Shown: one piece after another, positions 1 through 26,464 of the stretch
Layout: the number at the start of each line of letters is the position of its first letter
How positions within the stretch are numbered: the first letter of the stretch is position 1
NCBI GenBank assembly: GCA_033759635.1
Contig: GCA_033759635.1_4528.1
Source: a phage
Length of the DNA: 64,000 bases
Reading direction: 5' to 3' (one strand)
The notes under the pieces: generated by a model
The model's input: the letters and a program-made list of their open reading frames with translations, nothing else
The model's database searches: none
Told to the model about the DNA's origin: nothing
Made by a program: the position numbers and the translations under genes

Positions 1-317
1 TTTATTTCAAATGTTTCAAACTCTTCGGTGTATCTCCAATCAGACTGCTCAAATCCCTCCGCTGCTGTAGCCACACGCATCATATATGTTGTTAATGAAT
101 TTAAACCAGACTCAAAGAAATTGTTATCAGCGGTATATCCTAAATTAGTCCATCTATAGCTATTACGGGGAATTGCTTCCCCATTAGCTGTTTTGGTCTC
201 AGCTATTTCCACAAAATAGTAGAAATTAGCGCCAACCTCATCCCAGCGAATTTGAACTTGGTTTGCGGACAATTTAGATAATCTGAGACTCGTGACTGCT
301 GGCGCTTTTACTGTCAT
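1..317 (-). CDS. 7: baseplate wedge protein gp7, N-terminal fragment (gene runs off the left edge)
   Basis: Minus-strand reading frame open to the window edge; ATG at 315-317 overlaps the gp6 stop (ATGA); hand translation begins MTVKAPAVTSLRLSKLSANQVQIRWD; lies downstream of gene 6 as in T4. Confidence 0.6.
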   Translation of the reverse strand, partial: MTVKAPAVTSLRLSKLSANQVQIRWDEVGANFYYFVEIAETKTANGEAIPRNSYRWTNLGYTADNNFFESGLNSLTTYMMRVATAAEGFEQSDWRYTEEFETFEI

Positions 318-2284
318 TGTGAAATAGGCTCCAAATCTATGGTTAAATATTGTGGACGTAAGTCATTTTCAAATACAATTAATGACCCGTCTTTAGTAAA
401 GATAACATCATCAGCTGGGTCTGAATAGAGTTCAATAGTTTGAACTTCAAATCTATCGGAAGTTAAATCAATTTTAGCTATATTCCAATAAATTGAATCA
501 GCCGGATAATTTACTTCACCTATAGAGTAATATTTGTTTCTTCCGTCCGTAACATGAAGTTTATTAAAATCGTCACCAGTATATGGTTGAATATAAGCAT
601 TTTCTATAACGTCGCCATCTGCAAACGGGCCAATAATAACTTGTCCAATGCCACGGTCATTTCTATCTGAACCTACAATGCGAACGTCGTATTTAATAGT
701 AGCTTCCGTTTCAGGGTCAACGCGTAAACTATCAAATGAAAACACGTTAGATTCTAATGTTCTATCTTTAATCTGGTTATTGTATTTAATACCTGTTTCA
801 GGTGTTTTGTAGAAGTTCTGTACCTCGCGAACCATTTGAATAGTCGCAGACGAACCAATGATAGAAATATCTGCGTCATCGACATACGTTAGCATTTTAG
901 ATTTTGCGAATGACGAGTTAAAAATTTCCACGTCTTCAATATAATACCGGTCGATTTTATTAATAATTTGGCCTTCTAACCATTGTTCAGATTCCTGTAA
1001 TTTGTTCAATGCATACGTAACGCGAATATTCATTTTAATAAACAAATAATCAGGAGAAATAACAACAGGAGTTATCGTCCCTAAGTTATACTCATTAAGA
1101 TAATTTTTAATATCGTCTCGTTGGACGGAAGTCAAATATAACCCAGACTTAGGTTTAGCAGCAATAAATGCGTACCCAGGCTTAGATGAATCCGTAAATG
1201 TCTGAACCGCTTGAATAATAGAACCAAATCGTTCAGAGACGAATGTGTCGTAATCTGTCGCAGTCACACATCGTTGTTGAGTTTCGCGTTTAATTGTACC
1301 TAATTCACGGATACGTTCAATATCTTCAGGGTCGCCACCGCCATCCGCACCAACGAAGTCAGGGTTATTACTTGGGTTTTCATTAATTCCAATAACTGTG
1401 ATATTAGCTAATGTATCAGCATAAGAGAATCCTACTGCACCATTTGCTTCAGCACCATTAGTAGAAATATATTCAATTACGATTTTAGAACCCTGGACAG
1501 GTTTAAGGCCGCCAACGTAGTTAGATGTTAAAGCACCTTCTGATGTGTTAATAGAGATTTCACCTTCACCAAAATAAAATTCAGTGTTCCCGTCAACAGT
1601 TTCTCGCATATAATAAATGGTTGAAGTAGAACCAGCATGAACCATCGATTTGCGAGTCCAGTTAATCCATTCTGCTCCGTCAACATACAATTTAACCAAA
1701 TTACGGTCAATGTTCTTATCACGAATAATGATAGGTTTTAATTTATCAAATGTTAATTCAGTACGAACAATACGTCCCTGAGCTAACCTAAGACGTGGGA
1801 AATATTGATTATTTTTGTCTTTAACTACAATGACGTCTTCTGTGGAAACAAAGTTATATGGATTTACAGAAGTACCTTTAGCATACGCCAGGAAACGAGT
1901 ACCACGTGGAATAGTGATATAGTTTCTATTTAATGCATCCGTACATGTGAGCATAATTTCTGTTTGTGCTGCCGATTTAGATGAAGGCAGGTATCCGTTA
2001 TCTTGAGCCGCTTGTACAACAGAGCTACGCAAGTTTGCAGTGCGCATAAAGCTTTCATACACCGCACTATTACTGAACTGTTGGATATAAAGAGTATTAT
2101 ATGCTAAAAGGTCGCACAATACGTTTAAACGCGAACCTTCAAAATCATAATCAAGAAATTCATTCTGCCCATTAAGCCATTCGATAATGTTCTGTTTGAT
2201 TTCGGCAAATGTGCCCCCGATAAAAATCTCGGGAATAGCATTCGCTGTTCGGGTTAATTGATAATTTACAGGAGTGTTTGCCAT
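314..2284 (-). CDS. 6: baseplate wedge protein gp6
   Basis: ORF 314..2341; start moved to internal Met (MANTPVNYQLTRT...), giving 656 aa, T4 gp6-like size and N-terminus; synteny 53-5-5.4-6-7. Confidence 0.8.
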   Translation of the reverse strand: MANTPVNYQLTRTANAIPEIFIGGTFAEIKQNIIEWLNGQNEFLDYDFEGSRLNVLCDLLAYNTLYIQQFSNSAVYESFMRTANLRSSVVQAAQDNGYLPSSKSAAQTEIMLTCTDALNRNYITIPRGTRFLAYAKGTSVNPYNFVSTEDVIVVKDKNNQYFPRLRLAQGRIVRTELTFDKLKPIIIRDKNIDRNLVKLYVDGAEWINWTRKSMVHAGSTSTIYYMRETVDGNTEFYFGEGEISINTSEGALTSNYVGGLKPVQGSKIVIEYISTNGAEANGAVGFSYADTLANITVIGINENPSNNPDFVGADGGGDPEDIERIRELGTIKRETQQRCVTATDYDTFVSERFGSIIQAVQTFTDSSKPGYAFIAAKPKSGLYLTSVQRDDIKNYLNEYNLGTITPVVISPDYLFIKMNIRVTYALNKLQESEQWLEGQIINKIDRYYIEDVEIFNSSFAKSKMLTYVDDADISIIGSSATIQMVREVQNFYKTPETGIKYNNQIKDRTLESNVFSFDSLRVDPETEATIKYDVRIVGSDRNDRGIGQVIIGPFADGDVIENAYIQPYTGDDFNKLHVTDGRNKYYSIGEVNYPADSIYWNIAKIDLTSDRFEVQTIELYSDPADDVIFTKDGSLIVFENDLRPQYLTIDLEPISQ

Positions 2285-2292
2285 TTTAATTC

Positions 2293-2586
2293 CTATTTTA
2301 TAAAGACTTTTGACGAGGCCTGAGAAACAGTATCCCCGCATGAAATTGGGTCAGCCATTTGAACGGCCTTTTTACCGGTGACGTATACTTTAGATGTACG
2401 AGGTTCAGTAACACCTCCATGAGTCTCGTATGGTTTTTTAATTTCTGTATGAGGTGTTATTTGGTCTCCTGCTACAAGAACAGGAATACCGCCGGTGAAT
2501 ACTTTAGATTGAGAAGCATTAATTACTGTAGGAGGCCATGCTTCATGGCCTGTTGTAACGCACTGGTCGTAACTTAATCCAGACAT
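2293..2586 (-). CDS. 5.4: PAAR-repeat baseplate spike tip protein gp5.4
   Basis: ORF 2293..2640 trimmed to internal Met (MSGLSYDQC...), 97 aa; small Gly/Cys/His-rich protein directly downstream of gene 5 as in T4. Confidence 0.65.
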
Positions 2587-2588
2587 TT

Positions 2589-3104
2589 TTATGGCCTCGC
2601 ATAAACGTAGTTTCGTAATTGTTGAGCCCATTTGCTCCAATTTCCTACTATAGTTTTTGTATAAACCTTAGTAAGAGTTTTTTGTACCGGAGCTGGCGGA
2701 GGTTCTGTACTAGAGTCACTTCTTGAGCCGCCTGATGAACCTTCTTCTTGGTAGTTATAAATCATTTCAACCGTATAACTAAACACTTTACGAAGATTCT
2801 GAGGAGCTCTCCACAAATATAACTGTGCGGATTCATCTTTCGGTAAATCATCCCATGAAGATGCAGTTTTAAAATCATCATTTAATCGATATTTCAATGC
2901 ATCAGAAGAAAAGCTAAACACACTTTCATATGTTCCATATAAACGATTACCATCTACCGTAATGCCTTGTGTCGGTTCATAATCTGTTATATTTATTGAC
3001 ACTAAAGTTTCGGACGTTTCTAGCTGAGGAGTAAAAAGGACGTCAATAGACGCCCCTTCTATGTCTTCTCCTAAGTCGGTATTTAAAGGAAGTATTTGTG
3101 CCAT
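2589..3104 (-). CDS. hypothetical protein in gene 5.1 position
   Basis: 171-aa ORF between gene 5 and 5.4; no recognisable motif. Confidence 0.5.
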
Positions 3105-3107
3105 ATA

Positions 3108-4841
3108 TTACCCAATATCAATACGAGATCCGTCAACAGTATATTGTCCTGAAGCTATTGAGCTCATTGTAGTCATTGTCTCAGACCAATTGCCAGCAAC
3201 AGTCATATCAACATTACCATTGACAGTCCATTTAACATTACCATTGACAGTATAGTCATGATTCCCTTCAACTTGAGTCTTAGCATCACCTTTAACAAGA
3301 ATATCTGCATTTCCGTCAACAACTATTTTGATATTGCCCTTAACGTAAAGAGTTCCATCGCCTTCAACAGTTTTAGTTTGGTTACCACGAATAAAGATTG
3401 TGTCGCTGCCATCTATTTGATGGAGGCGGTCTGCCATGTTATAATATATTTCATTAGCACCAACGTTAACAAGTTTATCACCAGAAATCAAGAAGTTCCC
3501 ATCGCCATTAGTGATGTCAAAAAGGTCTTCTACAGTTTTACGAGTACGACGACCGGATGGAGAAACTTCCTCATATGACCCTGTCGGATGAACTAAGCGA
3601 TAACGTTCATTACCTGGAGTGTCGTCAAACTCTTGGATATGTCCGCTTTCTGTTTCCATAGCATGAACATACGGGTATTCACCACGATAACTTGATTCCG
3701 GTTCTTTAAAAAGGATACGTGAATCTAATGGAACAGGAGGACTAGCCGGATCTTCTGGATCTGTATTTCTAGTAACTAAATCGGCACCAACACCAGGCGA
3801 AGGTGGTGTTTTAACAGGAACACCGTATGATTCCATGTTACCAGTTAAAATAATTGTTGTTACGCGTGAAGCACGTCCTTTAGTCTGTTGGAACCATAAC
3901 GAATCACGCCCAGATTTGTATGCAGTTTTCCAATCGCCTGCGGCCATTGCTTTAAGCATAGTATTGAATTTTGCTACACCGCCAACACCCATTTGGAAGC
4001 ACATGTTTTCTAATGCCATTTGGCGAGACCTATTCATTTTGGCATAAACAGGACCTACTTTAGAATTAGAACGAATATCTTTCTGCATCTTAGCAAGGTC
4101 TTTCTCAAATAACGCTGTTGCTTCTTCTAATGTAATAGTCCCGGGATTTCCTGTTACTTCACGCCCTACTTGATCAGATAACAATTTATTAATTCGAGTC
4201 ATGTCTCGGGTCTTTTCCATTACGATAAGGTGTCCAATACCTACTGTAGGATACCCTAGATGGTCCCAATACACTTTATCACGAAGTCCTTCGTCACGAC
4301 GTAACATTTCTGTTATTGTAAAATTAGGGTCATCATCTTCTGGAATATTTGCTAAATCTGTATCATCCGGGTTTATACCATAATCCAAGTTGTTATCTTG
4401 AATTACGTTAGAGTTTGAATAATAACCAGCTTCACCACCTTGGTTTAATACGTTCGTATCATTACCTAAACGTCGCGGATATTGGCCAGTCGGGTCTGAA
4501 AAACCTTCAAGTCTATTAGGCTTTTCACGTACGATTCCGCCGTATGTACCAAGTACAATCCCGTTTGTTTTCCATTTGTCTAAGAAATGACCGTATACTC
4601 GAGTTCCTTCAACAGGACCTGTAACAGAACCACCAATACCTGAAATTGATGCAGACGTAATAGGTTGAATAACAGTCATCCACGGAAGTTTTTCTGTAGG
4701 AATACCTTGTACATCACCTTGTGCTCTCTGTGCTGGATGAAGACCAACGACTCGAACTCGAACTCGCCCTTGTTTTAATGGGTCCATTCTGTCCTCAACA
4801 ACACCCACGAACCAATTAAGGCTACTGCTAATCATTTCCAT
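3108..4841 (-). CDS. 5: baseplate central spike / tail lysozyme gp5
   Basis: 577 aa; central T4-lysozyme-like domain (GYPTVGIGHL...) and C-terminal repeated VxGxxxV beta-helix repeats (VKGDAKTQVEGNHDYTVNGNVKWTVNGNV); T4 gp5 is about 575 aa. Confidence 0.9.
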   Translation of the reverse strand: MEMISSSLNWFVGVVEDRMDPLKQGRVRVRVVGLHPAQRAQGDVQGIPTEKLPWMTVIQPITSASISGIGGSVTGPVEGTRVYGHFLDKWKTNGIVLGTYGGIVREKPNRLEGFSDPTGQYPRRLGNDTNVLNQGGEAGYYSNSNVIQDNNLDYGINPDDTDLANIPEDDDPNFTITEMLRRDEGLRDKVYWDHLGYPTVGIGHLIVMEKTRDMTRINKLLSDQVGREVTGNPGTITLEEATALFEKDLAKMQKDIRSNSKVGPVYAKMNRSRQMALENMCFQMGVGGVAKFNTMLKAMAAGDWKTAYKSGRDSLWFQQTKGRASRVTTIILTGNMESYGVPVKTPPSPGVGADLVTRNTDPEDPASPPVPLDSRILFKEPESSYRGEYPYVHAMETESGHIQEFDDTPGNERYRLVHPTGSYEEVSPSGRRTRKTVEDLFDITNGDGNFLISGDKLVNVGANEIYYNMADRLHQIDGSDTIFIRGNQTKTVEGDGTLYVKGNIKIVVDGNADILVKGDAKTQVEGNHDYTVNGNVKWTVNGNVDMTVAGNWSETMTTMSSIASGQYTVDGSRIDIG

Positions 4842-5416
4842 TATGCAATCTCCATCTCACGAATCAAATCAGTAATAAACGAGTTTATATCTTCTTTTGC
4901 AACAATTTTTATTTTACGAAGTTTTTCATTATCTAATATTGCCGCTTCATAAGTATCTACTGCAGCTAAAGGTCCTTTATATTGCGGATACTTACGAGCT
5001 TCATCACCTTTATCATACCACACTAAAGGCTCGTCTGGATATGAAACTAAATTGTAAAATTTCTCACGGTTATCGTTAATATGGTAAAGAATTTGGTCTC
5101 CGCCAGCATTTGCATATTTCTGAATAGACGCTTGATACGCTGCTTCCTGAGATGTAATCCAACCATAATACGGATCATAGTTATCATTACACATCAAAAG
5201 GACCCAGTATAATTGAGGGTTGCCATAAATTATGTTTGCTAGTTCTTCAGGACGTGGAGAGCCTTTAATATAATAAGAACGTAATCTATAATTGGCAGCA
5301 ACACGTTTAAAGTACTCTTTATAGTTACGAAATATGTCTGTCATAGGAATAGTAGGTGCATTCTTATTAATGGTTTTAGCACTATACCCTATTGGGTCGA
5401 AGAATGTAAATAACAA
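4841..5416 (-). CDS. 53: baseplate wedge protein gp53
   Basis: 191-aa ORF immediately upstream of gene 5 on the same strand; size and position match T4 gp53. Confidence 0.65.
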   Translation of the reverse strand: MLFTFFDPIGYSAKTINKNAPTIPMTDIFRNYKEYFKRVAANYRLRSYYIKGSPRPEELANIIYGNPQLYWVLLMCNDNYDPYYGWITSQEAAYQASIQKYANAGGDQILYHINDNREKFYNLVSYPDEPLVWYDKGDEARKYPQYKGPLAAVDTYEAAILDNEKLRKIKIVAKEDINSFITDLIREMEIA

Positions 5417-5443
5417 GATAGTCTCCTTCCAATATGAAATTGG

Positions 5444-5451
5444 TATAAATA
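5444..5451 (+). promoter_or_regulatory. T4-type late promoter (TATAAATA) for genes 4/2
   Basis: Exact TATAAATA about 27 nt upstream of the gene 4 ATG, in the divergent intergenic region. Confidence 0.5.
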
Positions 5452-5458
5452 ATAATAC

Positions 5459-5466
5459 TATTTATA
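5459..5466 (-). promoter_or_regulatory. T4-type late promoter (TATAAATA on minus strand) for genes 53-5-6-7
   Basis: tatttata on the plus strand is TATAAATA on the minus strand, upstream of gene 53. Confidence 0.45.
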
Positions 5467-5477
5467 AGGAGGACAAC

Positions 5478-5927
5478 ATGGCCTACTCTGGTAAATGGGT
5501 CCCGAAAAATTTAAAAAAATACCGTGGAGACCATACCAAAATAACGTATCGTTCAAACTGGGAAAAATTCTTTTTCGAATGGTTGGATAAAAATCCGGAA
5601 ATTATTGCATGGGGTAGTGAAACAGCCGTAATTCCATATTTTTGTAATGCTGAAGGTAAGAAACGTCGATACTATATGGACATATGGATGAAAGATGCAT
5701 CAGGTCAAGAGTTCTTTGTAGAAATAAAACCAAAGAAAGAAACTCAACCACCTATTAAGCCTGCAAATCTTACGACCGCAGCAAAGAAACGTTATATGAA
5801 TGAAATATACACCTGGTCTGTGAACTGCGACAAATGGAAAGCTGCTTCTGCTGTCGCAGAAAAGAGAAATATAAAATTTCGAGTTCTAACCGAAGACGGA
5901 CTTAGGAAACTCGGATACAAGGGGTAA
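5478..5927 (+). CDS. 4: head completion protein gp4
   Basis: ORF 5334..5927 trimmed to the Met preceded by AAGGAGG ([17 protein letters not shown]...), 149 aa; T4 gp4-like size and N-terminus. Confidence 0.75.
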
Positions 5928-5929
5928 TT

Positions 5930-6751
5930 ATGAGCATATTCCAAATTATATCTGAAGGCGTACAAGCCCCTAAGATTGCTCAGTCTATGAATGAAAGAAA
6001 ATGGATTGAGATAGGATTAGAATACAAGAAAGCTAAAGAGAAAGGAATCACTGCAAAAGCATTTGCAGAATCAAAAGGAATAAAATACTCGTCGTTTACA
6101 TCTGCAATGTCTAGATATGCATCATCTATTAAGACTGCACAGAAAATTGAAACGCTTGAATCTAAACCTAAAAATAAACTCAATAAGCAAGAACGTCAAC
6201 TTCTGATGATAAACTCGTTTCGCAGTTCAATACGAGAAAAGATTAGAAATGAAGGCGCAGCAGTAAACAACAAATCATCTAAGTGGTTTGTTGAAACAAT
6301 TAAGAAAAGTGTAAAAGGTCATAAAGTAGTCAAGCCTACGCCAGGCAAAATTTATACTTACGTGTATGATGCTAAACATAAAGATACTCTGCCGTATTGG
6401 GACAGATATCCTTTGATTATTTATTTAGGATTAGGTAAACATAATTTGATGTACGGGTTAAACTTGCACTATATCCCACCTAAAGCACGTCAACAGTTTC
6501 TTGAAGAATTGCTGAAGCAATACGCTAGCACAACTACTATTACTAATAACACAAAGTTGAAGATAGACTGGAGCAAGGTGAAAGGATTTCAAGGTGCTGA
6601 CAAAATGATTAAAGCATACCTGCCAGGCCACATTAGAGGAACAATAACAGAAATCGCTCCTAAAGACTGGGCTAACATAATCATGTTACCTACTCAGCAA
6701 TTTATGTCAAAAGGAAAACGTTTCTCTGCGAATACTGTTTGGAAATCTTAA
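5930..6751 (+). CDS. 2: DNA end protector protein gp2
   Basis: 273 aa (T4 gp2 is 274 aa); basic protein; synteny 4-2-3-1. Confidence 0.7.
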
Positions 6752-6853
6752 TTCTATTCTCTTCCGTTCTTCTGATATTCTGTTGAACCGGATTAATGGA
6801 AGAGACCTAAAACCATTATACTGTATTTTTATTAAAGCGTTTTTGAGGTGCTT

Positions 6854-7438
6854 ATGACTCGTCCAACGAGACAGATTTTTAACCAAACAAATATAACAAA
6901 CTTTGTTGTGGATATCCCAGATAGTACACGAACTTCAGGTTTTGTGCTCAATGCCCAAACGGCACCATTGCCAGGTGTGAGAATTCCTGTTGTTGAAACT
7001 GTGACAGGCACAATGGGGCTAGGGCGTGCAATGCGTGCAGGCACAACATTTGAATATGACCCTTTTATTGTACGATTTATAGTTGATGAAGACATGACGT
7101 CCTGGATGAACATGTATAAATGGATGCTCAGCACTAATAACTATATAACCGGACATAATACGGCCCATGCTGATGGTCCTGAGTTTGTTACTTTGCACAT
7201 TTTAAACAACAATAAGACTGAAGTCGTTTTGACGGCAAATTTCTATAAACCATGGATTTCCGATTTGAGCGAAATTGAATTTAGTTACACTGAAGATTCT
7301 GATCCTGCCGTTACGTGCGTAGCAACTATTCATTACGCGTATATGACGATAGAAAAAGACGGTGAAGTCATTGTATCTCAACAACCACGTCAGGCTGCCG
7401 AATCTAAATCCATTTCTAGACACCCTTCCTTGCGTTAA
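6854..7438 (+). CDS. 3: tail completion and sheath stabiliser protein gp3
   Basis: ORF 6848..7438 with ATG at 6854 after GAGGTG (MTRPTRQIF...); synteny. Confidence 0.65.
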   Translation: MTRPTRQIFNQTNITNFVVDIPDSTRTSGFVLNAQTAPLPGVRIPVVETVTGTMGLGRAMRAGTTFEYDPFIVRFIVDEDMTSWMNMYKWMLSTNNYITGHNTAHADGPEFVTLHILNNNKTEVVLTANFYKPWISDLSEIEFSYTEDSDPAVTCVATIHYAYMTIEKDGEVIVSQQPRQAAESKSISRHPSLR

Positions 7439-7492
7439 TCGCTTCTAGCTCCGTATGTTATAATCACTCATAAATTATATGAGGAAAAACCT

Positions 7493-8227
7493 ATGGAGCT
7501 AATCTTTTTAAGTGGCATCAAACGTAGTGGTAAAGACACTACTGCTGATTACATCAATTCAAACTTTAAATCCGTAAAATACCAATTAGCATATCCAATT
7601 AAAGACGCTCTAGCAATAGCCTGGGGGCGTAGACATGCCGAAAACCCTGATGTATTCACAGAGTTGAAATACGAATACTTTGAAGGCATTGGATACGACC
7701 GTGAAACACCATTAAATCTCAATAAGTTGGATGTTATTGAATTATTGGAAGAAGCGCTAATTTATTTACAAAGTCAATATTTACCAATTAATAATGTTAA
7801 AGTATTATCATCGTTAGAAGGTGGATACTCATATCTAGATATTAAACCGTACGAAGCCCTGCGTGAAGCTATAAATAATATCAACGACACATGGTCGATC
7901 CGCCGTCTTATGCAAGCCCTCGGTACGGATGTTGTCGTTAATTTATTTGACCGTATGTATTGGGTTAAGCTTTTTGCATTAAACTATATGGATTATATTG
8001 GAAGTGATTTCGATTACTATGTTGTGACCGATACACGCCAAGTCCATGAAATGGAAACCGCTAGAGCGATGGGTGCTACAGTTATTCATGTGGTTCGCTC
8101 TGGTACGGAATCCACCGATAAACATATTACAGAAGCTGGGTTGCCTATTGAAGAAGGCGACTTAGTTATTACAAACGACGGCTCGTTAGAAGAGCTTTAT
8201 TCTAAAATTGAAAAAATCTTAAGGTAA
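7493..8227 (+). CDS. 1: deoxynucleoside monophosphate kinase gp1
   Basis: 244 aa beginning MELIFLSGIKRSGKDTTADY (gp1-type phosphate-binding loop); T4 gp1 is 241 aa. Confidence 0.85.
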   Translation: MELIFLSGIKRSGKDTTADYINSNFKSVKYQLAYPIKDALAIAWGRRHAENPDVFTELKYEYFEGIGYDRETPLNLNKLDVIELLEEALIYLQSQYLPINNVKVLSSLEGGYSYLDIKPYEALREAINNINDTWSIRRLMQALGTDVVVNLFDRMYWVKLFALNYMDYIGSDFDYYVVTDTRQVHEMETARAMGATVIHVVRSGTESTDKHITEAGLPIEEGDLVITNDGSLEELYSKIEKILR

Positions 8228-13094: not shown

Positions 13095-13130
13095 TTTACA
13101 AACTCTTGAGAGCAGAGTATAATGCTCTCA
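13095..13130 (+). promoter_or_regulatory. early promoter cassette with stem-loop (PeSL-type)
   Basis: TTTACA -35; inverted repeat TGAGAGCA/TGCTCTCA bracketing GAGTATAAT; near-identical copy at 42931. Confidence 0.55.
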
Positions 13131-13163: not shown

Positions 13164-13757
13164 ATGAACACACTGAAGAAACTTGTTGAATTCATCCGCA
13201 CTAAACTGGGCACTGCTATGGCTAAAAATCTGACTGTAGAAGAACAGTATAACGCAGCTGCAGATAAGTTGATTACTCAAATCAAAGAACTAAAAACGGC
13301 TTCTGTTAAATCTATTAATGAAGAAAAACGTATTCGCGAACTTGTTAATGAAAAGAACAAGCAAGCCGCTTCTAAGGAACGTGAAATTCGTAAGCTCCTG
13401 GCTGAAGGACAAGATGTTACCATGCATGCTAAGCTTGGTCTTCTGTATCGTCGAACTGCCGAACAACTTAATACAAAAGCTGACGGGTACGCCGCTATGC
13501 GAATTGAAATTGCTCGTAAGGTGGTTGAACTTGATGATGCTCGTCAGAATTTGGCAATCAAACTCGAATACATCCGCGAAACTCGAGCAGCCAATGCCCT
13601 TGGTATCTCTACGGCTGATGATGTGATCGAAATTGCTGCACTGACTAAGGTTGATATCGAAGACACTCTGACTCGTGTTGAAACATTCAATGGCACTCCA
13701 GCTGGTGTCGAAACCACTTCTGCTGATGTACAAGAATATATTAACTCTTTGAAATAA
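13164..13757 (+). CDS. coiled-coil protein (possibly PspA-like)
   Basis: ORF 13122..13757 trimmed to [10 protein letters not shown]...; long heptad-rich helical sequence; the PspA resemblance is by eye only. Confidence 0.45.
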
Positions 13758-13765
13758 AATAATAT

Positions 13766-13788
13766 GGAGGACTCCGGTCCTCCTTTTG
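13766..13788 (+). terminator. rho-independent terminator
   Basis: GGAGGAC-tccg-GTCCTCC followed by TTTT. Confidence 0.6.
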
Positions 13789-13806: not shown

Positions 13807-14409
13807 ATGCGAAACCAAAATAATGATATTGACTCAATGTTCGAAGAGTTCCGAGATAAGGTAAATCCACCTACGTCTTTAGTTGATTCATTACGATATG
13901 TTTCAACCGGACGTAAATGGTACTGGTCGTCTTCTTATGAGACCACCGAGAAAACGGCTAGCCATAGCAGAAAATCTTTATTAGCCCCAGGTATTATGAT
14001 TCATGATATCGGAGCTATTGCTAAACTAGTTGCAGACCATGATATTAGATTCACTGATTTCGTTGCTCCTACGTGGTCTGTTTGTTGTTTAAACACTGAA
14101 TGGGAATATATCAGCGAACGCTCTGAAGATTATTATGGTTTTAGAGATAAGCTTCTGAGGTCTAATATGTTTTATATCGATACAGAAGTTCTAGTCGATA
14201 ATAAAAAATACTACTTTACGTTAATCGTCGATTCTGAAACTATGTATGAAGGCAAGCCTTTGCTTAAGAGAGTTGATGCTTTAAGTGCTATTGATGCGCT
14301 TTATGAAACTATGGTTGTTAGTCCTAATTTCACTAACAATTTAATCCTTGAGCAATTTATTATGGAATGTAGAGAATATGTCAAAGCCAACCCTATACAT
14401 GCCAAGTAA
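13807..14409 (+). CDS. hypothetical protein
   Basis: ORF 13786..14409 trimmed to the Met after AAGGAG (MRNQNNDIDSMF...). Confidence 0.5.
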   Translation: MRNQNNDIDSMFEEFRDKVNPPTSLVDSLRYVSTGRKWYWSSSYETTEKTASHSRKSLLAPGIMIHDIGAIAKLVADHDIRFTDFVAPTWSVCCLNTEWEYISERSEDYYGFRDKLLRSNMFYIDTEVLVDNKKYYFTLIVDSETMYEGKPLLKRVDALSAIDALYETMVVSPNFTNNLILEQFIMECREYVKANPIHAK

Positions 14410-14773
14410 GCCCTGGGCGTATGAATACAAGCGTAAATTAATCCCAAATGAAGTACTATTTGGCCCTATTTTAGCTTTAGCATTTTTAATCTTTATGATT
14501 ATAGGAGCCGTTTTAGATTTTAGTGAAGTTATATCGTCTGATGCAGCATTTTCATTAATGTTTGTCGCACCACTTATTGTACCGTTTTTATTAATGCCTA
14601 TTAACTGGATGGGATATTGGTACCAAGGACGTCATCACAGGGCCCGATTAAGAGAATGGAAAGTTCAGTGCGCAAAAGCCCAAGCTCAGTATGATGAAGC
14701 TGTTAAAAAGTATGAATATGAAGAAGCTATGGAATTCGTTAAGGAAATAAGATGCAAAAGCCTTAACTCTTAA
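14348..14773 (+). CDS. membrane protein (start uncertain)
   Basis: Two hydrophobic segments; true start probably at an internal Met (14378 or 14399) because the 5' end overlaps the previous gene. Confidence 0.45.
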   Translation: MSNLLWNVENMSKPTLYMPSKPWAYEYKRKLIPNEVLFGPILALAFLIFMIIGAVLDFSEVISSDAAFSLMFVAPLIVPFLLMPINWMGYWYQGRHHRARLREWKVQCAKAQAQYDEAVKKYEYEEAMEFVKEIRCKSLNS

Positions 14774-14814: not shown

Positions 14815-15111
14815 ATGAGTATTGGCATGGGATTTGCCTTTGGATTAGTTGGATTTATTATTGACGGCGTTGTGTTAGGATTTATAGGGAACACTGGTGG
14901 ATTCACAGATCAATGGCAGGACTTACGGTATACCCAAGCCTTTGCATCCATCGCATCATTTTGTACTGTAGTCTATTTTTACTACAATTTTATAAACCAT
15001 AACAAGAAAAATAAAAAAGTTTACGCTTCTCAAATGATTAGTTATAATGAACTCCTAGCTAGACGTGAAAATGAAACAATCGAAAACTTTATTAAGGAAT
15101 GTAGAAAATGA
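14815..15111 (+). CDS. small membrane protein, ENFIKECR-tail family (copy 1)
   Basis: N-terminal TM segments; C-terminus ...ENFIKECRK shared with the 17257 and 18250 products. Confidence 0.55.
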   Translation: MSIGMGFAFGLVGFIIDGVVLGFIGNTGGFTDQWQDLRYTQAFASIASFCTVVYFYYNFINHNKKNKKVYASQMISYNELLARRENETIENFIKECRK

Positions 15112-15413
15112 GTAAGATTATTGAAATTAAAGTACCAGAGTTTAATGATGCCAAATCCGCTTCAGATGCAATTTATAAACTTCTGAATCAAGCTGAACGT
15201 ATCGAAGAAGAAGCTACAAAGATTGCAGACCAATATGCAGTATCGTTTTCTGTAGGTGATTATGGTAGCGGTCGTACTTATTATCCTAAGGGTGAAATCG
15301 TATCCCAGTGGATGAAAGATGAAATTGAAAATAATGGCGGCGATGTTAAGCGTGAAGGTAATGGATACGTTATTACTGAAGGTGCTTGGGTTTCATCTTC
15401 TGCGTTGTGCTAA
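15108..15413 (+). CDS. hypothetical protein, WVSSSxxC-tail family (copy 1)
   Basis: 101 aa ending GAWVSSSALC; shares a YGxGxTYY motif with the next gene. Confidence 0.5.
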   Translation: MSKIIEIKVPEFNDAKSASDAIYKLLNQAERIEEEATKIADQYAVSFSVGDYGSGRTYYPKGEIVSQWMKDEIENNGGDVKREGNGYVITEGAWVSSSALC

Positions 15414-15422
15414 GGAATCATT

Positions 15423-15695
15423 ATGTCTAAAGAACAAACCGAACTGGCTGAAGCTGTAGCAAAAATCTATGCAGCTATTGAGGCTGCCAAAGAAATTGCT
15501 GATAAACAAAACACAACATTCGACTTGTATCCAGCTTATGGTATGGGTGGAACGTATTATTCTCCTGGATTCTTGAAAAAAGAACTTGAGCATTATACCG
15601 AACAAGGCAATCCGAATTGGGCCACTGTCAACCAACACTCATATTACACCAGCCTCGAATCAGGTGGTTGGGTTGCATCTTCTATGGAATGCTAA
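15423..15695 (+). CDS. hypothetical protein, WVSSSxxC-tail family (copy 2)
   Basis: 90 aa ending GGWVASSMEC. Confidence 0.5.
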   Translation: MSKEQTELAEAVAKIYAAIEAAKEIADKQNTTFDLYPAYGMGGTYYSPGFLKKELEHYTEQGNPNWATVNQHSYYTSLESGGWVASSMEC

Positions 15696-15704
15696 GGAAA
15701 TCAT

Positions 15705-15902
15705 ATGTCTCGTGAATTAGATTGTGCTGTACGTACGGCAGTAGCTGCTCTGGAAAACCTGTTCCAAATTGCAACAGAAGAACGCGAAGAAGTTACATTA
15801 TGGATTGAAGATAACGCAGGTCTGAATCTCCAGGACGCGATCTCATTATCCCACAATAGTATCACTGTTCAAGGCTGGGTATCATCTAGTTATTCTTGCT
15901 AA
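15705..15902 (+). CDS. hypothetical protein, WVSSSxxC-tail family (copy 3)
   Basis: 65 aa ending QGWVSSSYSC. Confidence 0.5.
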   Translation: MSRELDCAVRTAVAALENLFQIATEEREEVTLWIEDNAGLNLQDAISLSHNSITVQGWVSSSYSC

Positions 15903-15906
15903 AACA

Positions 15907-15944
15907 GTTTACAACAAGATAGGGCTATGTTATAGTAGTCCTAT
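15907..15944 (+). promoter_or_regulatory. early promoter cassette with stem-loop (PeSL-type)
   Basis: GTTTAC + ATAGGGCTA-tgTTATAGT-TAGTCCTAT. Confidence 0.55.
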
Positions 15945-15952
15945 CAAATTAA

Positions 15953-16204
15953 ATGGAGACAACAATGGTTTATTACGAAAGTATCGGAACCGAAGTAGTT
16001 GCTAAAACTATTACTCGTGAAAAGTTTGCAAAGATATTCGATATGCGTTATAAAAAATCTGAACACAAAGGCATCCGATTCGAAGATGCGCACTGTACAA
16101 TTTGCCCTTATAATGAAGACATAAACGGCACAATCGTTCCATTGGTAGAGGCTTCACATGACGACCTCTGGGATGAATATAATATCGCATGTCGCGAAAT
16201 TTAA
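15953..16204 (+). CDS. hypothetical protein
   Basis: 83-aa ORF following a promoter cassette. Confidence 0.5.
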   Translation: METTMVYYESIGTEVVAKTITREKFAKIFDMRYKKSEHKGIRFEDAHCTICPYNEDINGTIVPLVEASHDDLWDEYNIACREI

Positions 16205-16229
16205 GTAATCTAAATTCGAGGAAAATATT

Positions 16230-17186
16230 ATGATGTTAGTTATTGGTTCTCGTGCACTTCACTATCACGGTCTTATTGATTCTAGCGCTATCAAAAATAG
16301 TGATTGGGACTTTATTGCGGACCAATGTTCTTGGAATGCATTCAAAAATCAAATGATGGGTGTATATGTTCACCAAGATAACCCTGGTGTCCAAGTTTTC
16401 AAATGTTTCCATAATGGACGCGAAACTCATTTTGAAGCATACATCGTTCCGGCTATCACTAACGTTCGCGAACTAGTCGGTGAACTCACTCCTGAAGATT
16501 TCACGTCTTCTTATGACCTTTTAAAATACGCCAAGAAAAATTTGACTAAAGACCGTTTGAACGGGTTTTACTGGGCAACTCCTGAGATATGTCTTGCAAT
16601 TAAGATGTCTCATCGTTTCAAGAAAAATAATCCATTCTTTTTAAAGACTATGAACCATATTCAGTATCTTCGTGGTAAAGGTGTTACACTGGACGATGAA
16701 CTTACTGAAATTATGCTGAAACGCCAGAAAGAAACCTTGAACTATGCTCACCCAGTTCTTGACACTTCTAAAAGCGCATTCTTTAAAGATGACATCTATA
16801 CGTATGACCATGATACTATTCACGAAGCCATTGCACTAACAGACCGTCCAGCGTATACATTTTATATGAAAGATGGTTCTGAAGTCATGACCTCACGCGA
16901 GAAGTTCGAATCATTACCAGAAATGGTCAAATTAGCCGGCGTATACGAAGAATCATGTGTACTAGCGTTAGAACGTTCTCAGATTCCTAATAACTTTGAA
17001 ATCCATCCACGTGATAGTTTTATGATGGCATTAGAAAAAGTCTGTACTTCAATCACGTCAGGCTGGTTCCGTGAATACGCTTGGGAAAACTACAGCAAAG
17101 TTGTAAGTATGTACCAAAGCTTAGGACATGACGATTATGTAAAACGTTTTAAACAAAATTTCCATATGGTAAAACCTTTCAAATAA
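16230..17186 (+). CDS. hypothetical protein, possible Pol-beta-type nucleotidyltransferase fold
   Basis: 318 aa; N-terminus IGSRALHYHGLIDSSAIKNSDWDF resembles the hG[GS]...DxD minimal nucleotidyltransferase motif, but spacing is longer than canonical. Confidence 0.4.
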   Translation: MMLVIGSRALHYHGLIDSSAIKNSDWDFIADQCSWNAFKNQMMGVYVHQDNPGVQVFKCFHNGRETHFEAYIVPAITNVRELVGELTPEDFTSSYDLLKYAKKNLTKDRLNGFYWATPEICLAIKMSHRFKKNNPFFLKTMNHIQYLRGKGVTLDDELTEIMLKRQKETLNYAHPVLDTSKSAFFKDDIYTYDHDTIHEAIALTDRPAYTFYMKDGSEVMTSREKFESLPEMVKLAGVYEESCVLALERSQIPNNFEIHPRDSFMMALEKVCTSITSGWFREYAWENYSKVVSMYQSLGHDDYVKRFKQNFHMVKPFK

Positions 17187-17198
17187 TTTCGCAAAACT

Positions 17199-17236
17199 GT
17201 TTACACAATTATAGGACTATGTTATAGTAGTCCTAT
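17199..17236 (+). promoter_or_regulatory. early promoter cassette with stem-loop (PeSL-type)
   Basis: GTTTAC + ATAGGACTA-tgTTATAGT-TAGTCCTAT (same cassette as at 9286). Confidence 0.55.
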
Positions 17237-17256
17237 TAAAACATGAGGAGAATATT

Positions 17257-17562
17257 ATGAAATTAGGCGAAACCAACCGAATTGGTCTTTTAACTATATT
17301 TGTATCACTTTTTTACGTAGCTCTTTCTGTTGCAGTATTACAAAAGGCTTACGATATGGATGGTGTTCCTGGTTTTGTATTCTTATCACCATTTTTATTA
17401 TTCGTCGGGGCTTTGTTATTATATGCCACGACTAGTTTTGACCATAACGTCTGGGTTAATTATAAATGTAAATTGTCTGAAGAAGAACACGCAGAAGCTC
17501 GTAAAAAAACTATTGAATCTACCAATCTAGAAAATTTCATTAAAGAATGTCGAGGAAAATAA
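17257..17562 (+). CDS. small membrane protein, ENFIKECR-tail family (copy 2)
   Basis: Two TM segments; C-terminus ...LENFIKECRGK. Confidence 0.55.
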   Translation: MKLGETNRIGLLTIFVSLFYVALSVAVLQKAYDMDGVPGFVFLSPFLLFVGALLLYATTSFDHNVWVNYKCKLSEEEHAEARKKTIESTNLENFIKECRGK

Positions 17563-17563
17563 T

Positions 17564-18250
17564 ATGAATAGTTCTAAAGTGTTTAATAGTCAAGCTCGTG
17601 CAGTAGGTGGTTTTGCTCATAACGTACAAAATGACCAAATCAAAAATGAACCAATGTTCTTTAACTGTGATTTGAGTTTTGCTTGGGATAACGGCGGTCC
17701 TATTACTCGTAGCTTTATTGCCAATCTCCCAATTGATTGGACTAATCAACATGTTGTATTTGATTCTCGGGTTCATATGCTGATGCCTGGTTGGTATCCT
17801 GCTATTCCTGGATATCACCATGACGATGTTCCTCGCCCTGATATTCCAGTCTGCCAACACTTTATTACTGCAGGACAACCTGACTATGATAACCCTCGTT
17901 ACCATTCTGAACATATTCTTGGTCTTGTTAACGCTGACGTGTGTCCTACTCATTTTGCAACAGGAACTGCAGAGTTCAGTCAGATTCCTGATGGCGAACT
18001 TATCTATCGCCAATGGCACAAAGAAGTCCTCGAAAAAATTGAAAAAGGTGAACTAGAGAAATGGGAAGCTCCAGACCGTACTCTTCTTCAGTTTGATTGG
18101 CAAACATGGCACACTGGTTCTCGTGCAATTAGTAATGGATGGCGTTGGTTCGGACGTGTATCTCGTAATACAGACCGAGTTAAAAAGATTACCAATGAAA
18201 TTCGTGTCAATGCCCAAGTTTATCTGGAATTCCCTATGGAAGGCTGGTAA
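17564..18250 (+). CDS. hypothetical protein (His/Cys-rich)
   Basis: 228-aa ORF; several HxD/HH/Cys clusters suggest metal binding, but no family recognised. Confidence 0.5.
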   Translation: MNSSKVFNSQARAVGGFAHNVQNDQIKNEPMFFNCDLSFAWDNGGPITRSFIANLPIDWTNQHVVFDSRVHMLMPGWYPAIPGYHHDDVPRPDIPVCQHFITAGQPDYDNPRYHSEHILGLVNADVCPTHFATGTAEFSQIPDGELIYRQWHKEVLEKIEKGELEKWEAPDRTLLQFDWQTWHTGSRAISNGWRWFGRVSRNTDRVKKITNEIRVNAQVYLEFPMEGW

Positions 18251-18741
18251 TGATTAACAAAACATATTGGTCTAATATTGTCGACGGCAATGAAGGTATT
18301 TCATACTATTCAGTAGATTGGACAGGATGTCCATCCTACTTAGTGAAACGTATTTGTCAAGAATTTAAAATCGACCAGCCAGCAGGTATTATCGTGAACA
18401 GATACATTAATGGATATCAACCTATCGATGAAGTAATACGAACAACTCAAGCTGATCTTGAAAAGTTTTTCAATAAGTGTCAATGGATAACAGGATGGAT
18501 TATATTTGTACCGTCGGTATGGTTTTTTAGTACTAAAGTAAGTGCCTTTGCCATACCAGATATTATCGCTATCTTATTAGCATCTACTATCGTAAGTATT
18601 ATTGGTGGTATTATTGGTGGAGGTACTATAGGCATCATTATTAATCTTGTTAAAAGTAGTTTACAGGAACGTAAAGACAAGATAAAGGCCAAGAATAATG
18701 AAGTTGAACGTTTTATTACCGAATGCAGGAATTTGAGATGA
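18250..18741 (+). CDS. membrane protein, ENFIKECR-tail family (copy 3)
   Basis: TM segments with a GG-rich helix (IIGGIIGGGTIG); C-terminus ...VERFITECRNLR. Confidence 0.5.
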   Translation: MINKTYWSNIVDGNEGISYYSVDWTGCPSYLVKRICQEFKIDQPAGIIVNRYINGYQPIDEVIRTTQADLEKFFNKCQWITGWIIFVPSVWFFSTKVSAFAIPDIIAILLASTIVSIIGGIIGGGTIGIIINLVKSSLQERKDKIKAKNNEVERFITECRNLR

Positions 18742-25696: not shown

Positions 25697-25890
25697 TTAC
25701 TCGCGAACAAAAGAACGAAATATTATTTTTAGTTGGTGAAATTATTAGTTTAGAAAAGGATTTGTCTTTTGAAATATCTTCTGAATATGGAGATGCCGAA
25801 ACATATTACGAATTAGTAAAATCTATCAATAAAGCTGAAAATGATTTAGAAACATATTTAGAAAATTTAACTAAGGACTCTTATGGCTAG
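25693..25890 (+). CDS. small acidic hypothetical protein
   Basis: 65 aa, ATGA-coupled. Confidence 0.45.
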   Translation: MITREQKNEILFLVGEIISLEKDLSFEISSEYGDAETYYELVKSINKAENDLETYLENLTKDSYG

Positions 25891-26464
25891 TTTAATTTTT
25901 ACCTATGCCGCTATGAACGCTGGTAAGTCTGCTTCATTACTTACTGCCGCACATAACTATAAAGAACGTGGCATGGGTGTATTAGTTCTTAAACCTGCTA
26001 TTGATACTCGAGATTCAAAAGGTGAAATAGTCTCTCGTATTGGTATTCGTCAGGATGCCAATATAATTACAAAAGACATGGACATCTTTGAATTCTATAA
26101 ATGGGCTGCAGCACAAAAGGATATTCATTGTGTATTTGTTGACGAAGCTCAGTTCTTAACTACTGAAAAGGTGTATCAACTTAGTCGTATTGTTGACGTA
26201 TACAATGTGCCAGTAATGGCATATGGACTACGAACAGATTTTAAAGGTAATCTATTTGAAGGTTCTCAAGCATTAATGGCTATTGCCGATAAGCTTGTTG
26301 AACTTAAAGGTGTCTGTCATTGCGGTAAAAAGGCCACAATGGTAGCTAGAGTCACGGAAGATGGACTTCCAATTACAGATGGTGGACAAATTGAAATTGG
26401 TGATACCGATAGATACGTGTCATTATGCCGGAAGCATTGGAATGATTTGACAGGGATGTTATAA
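25883..26464 (+). CDS. tk: thymidine kinase
   Basis: P-loop YAAMNAGKS, VDEAQF, C-terminal Zn-ribbon CHCGKKA...CRKH; 193 aa as T4 Tk. Confidence 0.9.
   Translation: MASLIFTYAAMNAGKSASLLTAAHNYKERGMGVLVLKPAIDTRDSKGEIVSRIGIRQDANIITKDMDIFEFYKWAAAQKDIHCVFVDEAQFLTTEKVYQLSRIVDVYNVPVMAYGLRTDFKGNLFEGSQALMAIADKLVELKGVCHCGKKATMVARVTEDGLPITDGGQIEIGDTDRYVSLCRKHWNDLTGML

Follow-up and report, generated by a model that had tools for sequence, protein, structure and literature searches.

A short C-terminal tail common to several small proteins of a T4-like phage, encoded beside a PspA/Vipp1-like gene

Why do several small proteins of one phage, with different membrane segments, end in almost the same residues? 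The question arises from a 64,000-nucleotide stretch of phage DNA (contig GCA_033759635.1_4528.1 of GenBank assembly GCA_033759635.1), called the window here. An initial annotation, made from the letters alone, had noted that three open reading frames (ORFs) between positions 14815 and 18741 encode small membrane proteins with a common C-terminal E(N/R)FI(K/T)ECR tail. It had proposed a shared cytoplasmic tail on diversified membrane anchors and a common interaction partner. The region is closest to Shigella phage Shf125875 (Mosigvirus, T4/RB69 group), with 97.7% identity, and the T4 and RB69 gene names are used below. We regard it as virtually certain that the tail is a real motif shared at the protein level, and as very likely that it is tied to a module containing e.6, the neighbouring gene for a PspA/Vipp1-like protein. 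The overall reading that we favour, at about an even chance, is that the tail serves, in the cytoplasm, as a helix for docking on a common partner, most plausibly e.6.

The three ORFs exist as described, and their translations have the reported C-termini. When the window was translated in all six frames, the pattern E.FI.EC[RK] matched four times, whereas residue frequencies would give 0.0022 matches. Each of the four lies on the + strand inside a real ORF, 1-11 residues ahead of the stop codon. The tail of the trio is real and far above chance, but the count is five, because an exact copy in the e.5 homologue and a degenerate one in the e.4 homologue had been missed. The four exact copies belong to the e.5, e.3, ORF133c and e.2 homologues, and all five carriers are identified by full-length PHROG profile matches (E 4.9e-39 to 2.1e-95). 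The carriers, with lengths in amino acids (aa) and transmembrane (TM) segments, are as follows.

13807..14409, + strand: T4 e.5 homologue, 200 aa, no TM; phrog_2607; tail EQFIMECR at 14350-14373, 11 residues before the stop; C-terminus ...EQFIMECREYVKANPIHAK
14378..14773, + strand: T4 e.4 homologue, 131 aa, 2 TM; phrog_2604; degenerate tail EFVKEIRC (...EFVKEIRCKSLNS) with Ile for Cys, FVKEIRC at 14735-14755
14815..15111, + strand: T4 e.3 homologue, 98-aa ORF; phrog_2330; tail ENFIKECR at 15082-15105, end ...ENFIKECRK
17257..17562, + strand: RB69 ORF133c homologue, 101 aa, 2 TM; phrog_9798; tail ENFIKECR at 17530-17553, end ...ENFIKECRGK
18250..18741, + strand: T4/RB69 e.2 homologue, 163 aa, with an N-terminal domain of about 80 aa and 2 TM; phrog_2203; tail ERFITECR at 18706-18729, end ...ERFITECRNLR

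The e.3 start of the relatives is the ATG at 14752, within the e.4 tail codons AGATGC, and the product is 119 aa long in both Shf125875 and phage 55. In the window gene, C is replaced by T at 14764, so that codon 5 reads TAA instead of CAA (14764-14766), and only the 98-aa ORF from 14815 is open. Tails are also found in T4 itself, where e.5 has ...EKFVKECREYV..., e.4 has ...KFVKESRCKSQS and e.3 has ...EFVIDCRKIK. The annotation of the reference T4 e.2 (minus strand, T4 67472-67960, L001 1973-2461) gives it 102 aa and no tail. Set against its relatives, this e.2 has a 1-base deletion in a run of A and a 1-base insertion 78 bases further on, and its tail-coding end (NNFITECRKLK) is left unannotated in the gap between e.2 and nudE. 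This indel pair is either a true disruption or the result of old sequencing errors.

Two further candidates in the window were rejected. The ORF at 15953..16204 (...EYNIACREI) was considered as a sixth member, and its orthologues end in ...NTYCYEI or ...NTYCQEI, without the Arg. The thymidine kinase at 25883..26464 (...YVSLCRKHW...) fits a loose pattern and is an unrelated false positive. Apart from this loose match, no further tail occurs in the window; the T4 stretches scanned were bases 1-50,000 and 65.5-75.5 kb, and the former has none.

Is the likeness one of proteins or of DNA? The initial annotation had argued for conservation at the protein level from synonymous codon differences, and had named a repeated DNA cassette as the opposing explanation. 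The two ENFIKECR tails, identical as protein, are encoded with 4 differences in 24 bases, every one of them synonymous. In pairs, the tail-core DNAs agree at 16-20 of 24 bases, with least agreement at third codon positions. Over the 45 bases upstream of the tails only 11-17 are identical, which is the chance level, and a repeat search of the window found no long direct repeat spanning the tails. Among 61 distinct tail DNAs from relatives, Arg is encoded by all six of its codons, Cys by TGT in 29 and by TGC in 32, and Phe and Ile by all of theirs. That all synonymous codons are used indicates that the constraint is on the protein. The codon argument holds in both its parts, and the cassette was not found.

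A signal in the nucleic acid was also considered. The next ATG lies 1-31 bases past the Arg codon in nearly all cases, and the purine-rich codons of K-E...R-K often give AGGA or GAGG, as would suit a ribosome binding site or translational coupling to the next gene. However, the most conserved residues (Phe, Ile/Val and Cys) have codons containing U or pyrimidines, Arg is CGT or CGC in 27 of the 61 tail DNAs and then gives no Shine-Dalgarno match, third codon positions are the most variable, and among genes of the e.5 family the next start is anywhere from 4 to 31 bases away. For a recombination cassette, 16-20 shared bases in 24 between random flanks are too short and too divergent. Codon usage and the variable next-start distance largely exclude a signal at this level, which we find scarcely credible.

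What is kept in the tail? We collected 92 T4-like phage loci, with e.6 and a conserved 228-aa ORF132c homologue as anchors. On the + strand of these loci, 92 of the 93 matches to F[IV]..CR lie no more than 20 residues from the stop. The general form is hydrophobic(-7)-x-x-[F/Y/W/I](-4)-[I/V](-3)-x-x-[C/A/other](0)-[R/K](+1), usually with a basic residue next. Position -7 lay outside the selection criteria, and about 51 of 52 tails have a hydrophobic residue there. Together with -4, -3 and 0 this position makes an i, i+3, i+4, i+7 stripe, that is, one face of a helix; positions -10, -11 and -14 are polar. The AF2 model of the e.5 homologue is poor (pLDDT 57.8) and places the tail, at low confidence, in a helix at residues 179-194.

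Orthologues gathered by full-length homology, with the motif unused, kept the tail or a conservative variant of it, such as FIKECKS, FVKESRC, FIKEVRN, FIKNVRRK, FIESARKK or NWIKGCRK. Among the carrier families, e.5 is soluble (180-243 aa), e.2 combines an N-terminal domain with 2 TM and also has short versions (88-136 aa), and the others are e.3, ORF133c and a further soluble one of about 95 aa. An alignment of e.5 proteins with 18-47% identity has M1, N96, F184, C188 and R189 as its only invariant residues. Judged from sequence, the tail is the most conserved part of each carrier.

Position 0 is usually Cys and may also be Ala, Val, Ile, Ser, Met, Leu or Lys. Because many carriers have no Cys there, we dropped cysteine chemistry (a metal site, a disulfide or a modification) as an explanation. 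The T4 prohead protease has the cleavage consensus I-x-E. A site for this protease was dropped as well, since the Glu is not conserved and may be replaced by Q, S, N, G or D. A tail-only profile (42-aa query) had one match in a set of 5.8 billion proteins, the motif being too short for significance at that size, while the single-protein and family-profile searches with e.5 gave 4 and 12 proteins, respectively. The e.5 profile found no relative among solved structures. A literature search for the motif strings and for e.2-e.5, within a limited literature collection, gave nothing relevant.

Are the carriers simply relatives of each other? Profile-profile comparison between families aligned only the last 10-58 residues. 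When the tails were removed, similarity between families disappeared except for e.3 and e.4 (hhalign 82.7% over 101 columns), which on this comparison are paralogues over their whole length. The ORF133c homologue at 17257 has a weak match in the e.2 family, to the C-terminal half of the latter (phrog_2203, E 9e-5; hhalign over 58 columns), and may be related to that half. Between the soluble and the membrane families, the same comparison detected no similarity beyond the tail. The statement that the membrane proteins have different TM regions was partly right, subject to this pair of full-length paralogues and this weak match.

These kinships bear on the view that the tail has no function and is the slowest-evolving remnant of one repeatedly duplicated ancestral small membrane protein. 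The e.3/e.4 pair and the weak match of the ORF133c homologue are what it predicts, and, as small TM proteins diverge fast, loss of similarity elsewhere would be expected. It does not fit with tails on proteins that have no TM and no detectable likeness to the membrane families, namely e.5, the family of about 95 aa and an Ackermannviridae protein of about 180 aa. Nor does it fit with e.5 proteins of 18-23% identity, in which, besides M1 and N96, the tail is the sole invariant part, which implies selection on the tail. We consider a functionless remnant very unlikely.

The e.4, ORF133c and e.2 homologues have two hydrophobic segments each. The e.3 homologue has one clear segment and a weaker second one, below the cut-off and judged by eye, and the e.5 homologue has none. 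C-terminal segments of the membrane carriers contain 8-11 Lys+Arg, against 0-1 in the loops between their TM segments. Given these Lys/Arg-rich segments and near-uncharged loops, the tail probably lies in the cytoplasm, where it ends a basic C-terminal segment, and the earlier placement of it there is plausible. The picture of diversified membrane anchors fared less well. Two of the anchors (e.3 and e.4) are plain paralogues, and the tail is not confined to membrane proteins, as it is also carried by the soluble 200-aa e.5 homologue and by the soluble family of about 95 aa in relatives.

What else do the tail genes have in common? They lie next to e.6, the first gene of the module.

13164..13757, + strand: T4 e.6 homologue, 197 aa; phrog_1203; 'similar to RB69 e.6' in Shf125875; PspA/Vipp1-like, ESCRT-III superfamily

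The e.6 family is small, with 37 clusters of proteins of about 200 aa among 1.84 billion representatives, and we found no further branches of it in the viral or metagenome contigs searched. The window protein had no match to PspA_IM30 (PF04012) at E <= 0.1, and a first, shallow e.6 profile found no relative among solved structures. phmmer linked the window protein to two intermediate sequences, P0042 (E 1.8e-7) and P0043 (E 3e-7), which score 35.1 and 39.0 bits on PF04012, with a cut-off of 33.9. With the e.6 family profile, the top 8 PDB matches were Vipp1 or PspA (E 6e-5 to 2.5e-3), colinear from residue 1. The AF2 model (pLDDT 83.3) has helices at 2-22, 25-80 and 86-145, that is, an N-terminal helix and a long hairpin, and a Foldseek search with this model gave top 12 PDB matches that were all Vipp1 or PspA, with probability 1.00. 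By intermediate sequences, profiles and model, the e.6 homologue is PspA/Vipp1-like. The likeness has been published already, only in a genome announcement, where the e.6 homologue of phage Metamorpho matched E. coli PspA by HHpred at 99.9% (PMC7862958).

The association of the tail with e.6 is close. In the window, all membrane carriers lie within 5 kb downstream of e.6. In every source with a full e.6-family ORF (48 of 48), one or more tail ORFs follow within 7 kb downstream. Of the 912 ORFs within that distance, 120 have the strict tail, against 25 of the 2934 other + strand ORFs, and most of these 25 are thymidine kinases or tail-bearing paralogues just upstream of e.6 in a Proteus phage clade.

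A prospective test used loci fetched by distant e.6 homology alone, with the tail unused. In Ackermannviridae loci (of which L096 is Klebsiella phage May), the gene after the PspA-like one encodes a protein of 177-196 aa with ...[IV]E[ST]I[IV]xRARG... at 18-21 residues before the stop, and then come up to three TM proteins of 51-62 aa that end in ...I[IV]xxAR.R.. The spacing within these tails equals that of the T4-type tails. Morganella phage MP1 has seven [YF][IV]xxCR tails, loci L109 and L110 have three [YF][IL]xxC[RK] tails, and the Proteus phage clade has YIxxKR tails. In the clade of Proteus phage phiP4-3 (L105 4398-5743, L104 4504-5434), two or three soluble paralogues of about 150 aa lie directly upstream of e.6 and carry Y[IV]xxCR tails 7-14 residues before the stop. 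Tail genes can thus flank the PspA-like gene on both sides. The number of carriers per genome is three to eight.

The residues at -4 and 0 differ by lineage. They are F/C in the enteric T4-likes (86 of 93 and 74 of 93), I/A in the Ackermannviridae (15 of 16 and 14 of 16) and Y/K in the Proteus clade, and non-homologous carriers of one lineage carry the same variant.

What does the tail do? We consider it rather probable, from these patterns, that it docks onto one common partner. A single partner is favoured because non-homologous carriers in one genome share the lineage-specific variant, and because the tail genes always lie beside the conserved PspA-like e.6. The likelihood that this partner would be e.6 itself, which we judge from gene position and by analogy, falls somewhat short of an even chance. 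In the mechanism proposed here, the tail would dock otherwise unrelated carriers onto a single common partner, for which the PspA-like e.6 scaffold is the best candidate, and the membrane carriers would then serve as anchors or adaptors for e.6, much as PspC binds PspA. The cytoplasmic domain at the C-terminus of PspC binds PspA (PMC5596341), and PspA homologues usually act with accessory proteins from the same operon (PMC7619361).

The tails might instead bind each other, in a short hetero- or homo-oligomeric helix bundle that joins e.5, e.4, e.3, ORF133c and e.2 into a membrane complex without e.6. Such a bundle would account for the same hydrophobic stripe on every member, could recruit soluble e.5 to the membrane members, and would also be expected to show concerted lineage variation, as any self-associating motif. 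However, the stripe covers about two helical turns, with polar residues at -10, -11 and -14, which is short for a stable bundle, and the constant neighbourhood of e.6 across two phage families is left unexplained. We think this arrangement unlikely.

Short C-terminal peptides are a common means of engaging host hubs, and the tail could dock on an Enterobacterales protein (PspA/PspF, a protease or a membrane insertase, for example), for delivery or turnover. All carriers found are from phages of Enterobacterales, bar one pair, guessed to be Aeromonas-like, which has a divergent tail. The C-terminal stretches MERYVTSD and LESILDAE of E. coli PspC and PspB are faintly similar to the tails, which is a lead only. 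On the other hand, no motif-bearing host protein was identified, and the tail varies by phage lineage (F/C, I/A, Y/K) on closely related hosts, for example between Klebsiella T4-likes and Klebsiella Ackermannviridae. A phage-encoded partner that co-varies with the tail fits such variation better than a conserved host target does, and docking on a host protein is in our opinion distinctly unlikely.

Several points weigh against docking on e.6 as well. Gene neighbourhood is the sole ground of the link to e.6, and tight linkage in a compact phage cluster may also mean shared history. The concerted lineage variants could stem from gene conversion or recent duplication rather than from co-evolution with a partner. 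The tail proteins have no match to the PspC or PspB families (Pfam, E <= 0.1). The helical hydrophobic moment is above that of shuffled sequences in only one of the five window tails, and some relatives have no Arg (F[IV]xYC[IV] in L025 and L026). A hidden Markov model trained on the F...C tails misses the I...A tails of the Ackermannviridae, and I[IV]xxAR is a less specific pattern of low complexity; the grounds for equating these tails are spacing, position, gene order and bridging variants (such as FIESAR), and not score. Finally, on one contig (L015) the fetched stretch holds two tail genes and lacks e.6. The contig is the only such source, and it matches the window only from 7647 on, its bases 1-7646 being unrelated genes, so that it is rearranged or chimeric upstream.

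If the docking-helix reading is taken further, the tail would be the recruitment code of a phage ESCRT-III-like machine, in which polymerising e.6 would be sent to the inner membrane, to sites or to cargo by changeable adaptors through one C-terminal helix. Such a machine would be kept from T4-like (Straboviridae) to Vi1-like (Ackermannviridae) phages, and would keep the host membrane tight or remodel it during infection. This extension is possible, though doubtful.

How is the module placed in the phage genome? The tail cluster lies upstream of the lysozyme gene e, among the early-region ORFs of the T4/RB69 group. Shf125875 is annotated, in order, with RB69-like e.6, e.5, e.4, e.3, ORF139c-134c, ORF133c, ORF132c, e.2, ORF130c, nudE and e, and the order e.6, e.5, e.4, e.3 ... 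e.2, nudE, e is common to the window, T4 and Shf125875. The window has direct homologues, in kept order, of T4 e.2-e.6 and RB69 ORF133c, the ORFs between the tRNA region and gene e. Unlike T4, it has seven genes (3.1 kb) inserted between e.3 and e.2, the gene of the extra tail protein at 17257 among them. The tail genes and e.6 form a conserved module, which is probably transcribed early. Two elements flank e.6.

13095..13123, + strand: match to a sigma-70/T4-early-like promoter consensus only, TTTACA-17-TATAAT, 11 of 12 consensus positions, just 5' of the e.6 homologue
13766..13783, + strand: predicted terminator-like G+C hairpin GGAGGACTCCGGTCCTCC followed by TTTT, between e.6 and e.5

The hairpin might attenuate read-through into the tail genes and give unequal expression of scaffold and tail genes. 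As a speculation, a promoter-like site 5' and a hairpin 3' of e.6 would fit an abundant scaffold with scarcer adaptors.

Two 59-base intergenic repeats, at 15901-15959 and 17193-17251, are 80% identical and precede an 83-aa ORF and the ORF at 17257, respectively. Each contains an early-promoter-like GTTTAC...TATAGT and a stem-loop, and we take them to resemble the PeSL (promoter-early stem-loop) cassettes of T4-type genomes, which have been proposed as gene shufflers. PeSL cassettes are intergenic DNA repeats of about 59 bases, whereas the tails are coding, 24 bases long, synonymously diverged and at other positions.

Other genes of the region were observed as well. Three tandem small soluble paralogues (15108-15413, 15423-15695 and 15705-15902; phrog_899) share a second C-terminal motif, GWV(S/A)SSxxC, directly before the stop, and relatives have up to five copies (...VWISSSEMC, ...SIWQPSSC, ...FWYSSSMSRC). 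A 318-aa protein at 16230-17186, inside the insert between e.3 and e.2 relative to T4, has the domains DUF7277 (E 1e-26) and DUF7275 (E 4e-79). The 228-aa ORF132c homologue at 17564-18250 (phrog_1843) had no Pfam match. Its relatives occur in 80 viral loci, down to 38% identity and many outside T4-like contexts, and it has many His, Asp and Pro residues (e.g. GYHHDDVPRPD) that are invariant across four close relatives.

How does the module compare with known systems? Eukaryotic ESCRT-III subunits have MIM1 helices, which bind the Vps4 MIT domain and follow the consensus (D/E)xxLxxRLxxL(K/R). The likeness to the phage tail is a resemblance only: in both, an ESCRT-III-type system includes a C-terminal amphipathic helix whose residues i, i+4 and i+7 are hydrophobic and precede a basic one. 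MIM1 is on the ESCRT-III subunit itself, whereas the phage motif is on the neighbours of e.6 and not at the e.6 C-terminus. At i+3, MIM1 has Arg and the phage tails have Phe, Tyr or Ile, so the tails do not match MIM1. We saw no MIT or Vps4-like protein, and no search was aimed at one. Mimicry of the C-termini of PspC and PspB was also considered (E. coli pspB and pspC, L108 3302-3885), and the resemblance is too weak to count. PspC ...LREMERYVTSDTF... and PspB ...ALESILDAEH... are faintly like the phage tails VESYIKQCR and IESIIRRAR, over a length too short for evidence.

The closest comparison is with the PspA-PspB/PspC system of E. coli and Yersinia, in which the gene of a PspA-family scaffold lies beside those of small integral inner-membrane proteins. 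The phage module likewise has a PspA-like gene followed by genes of 2-TM proteins with a predicted cytoplasmic C-terminal helix. Related pairs are LiaH-LiaI in Bacillus and PspA-PspM in mycobacteria. The phage module differs from Psp in that it has no PspC or PspB sequence match, is phage-encoded with no PspF-type regulator nearby, and has three to eight carriers per genome with one motif, soluble ones included; binding to the partner is inferred. The comparison gives a testable organisation, one PspA-type scaffold with three to eight neighbours that share a nine-residue C-terminal helix, to the T4 ORFs e.2-e.6, which have no assigned function although T4 is among the best-studied viruses. The motif can also serve as an annotation aid, flagging members of the module in Straboviridae and Ackermannviridae after full-length similarity is lost. 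If the tails do dock on e.6, the phage would carry its own counterpart of the phage-shock system of bacteria, unusual in its design of one motif and many adaptors, and one could then test by what means large lytic phages protect the inner membrane of the host or reshape it, as in lysis inhibition or superinfection.

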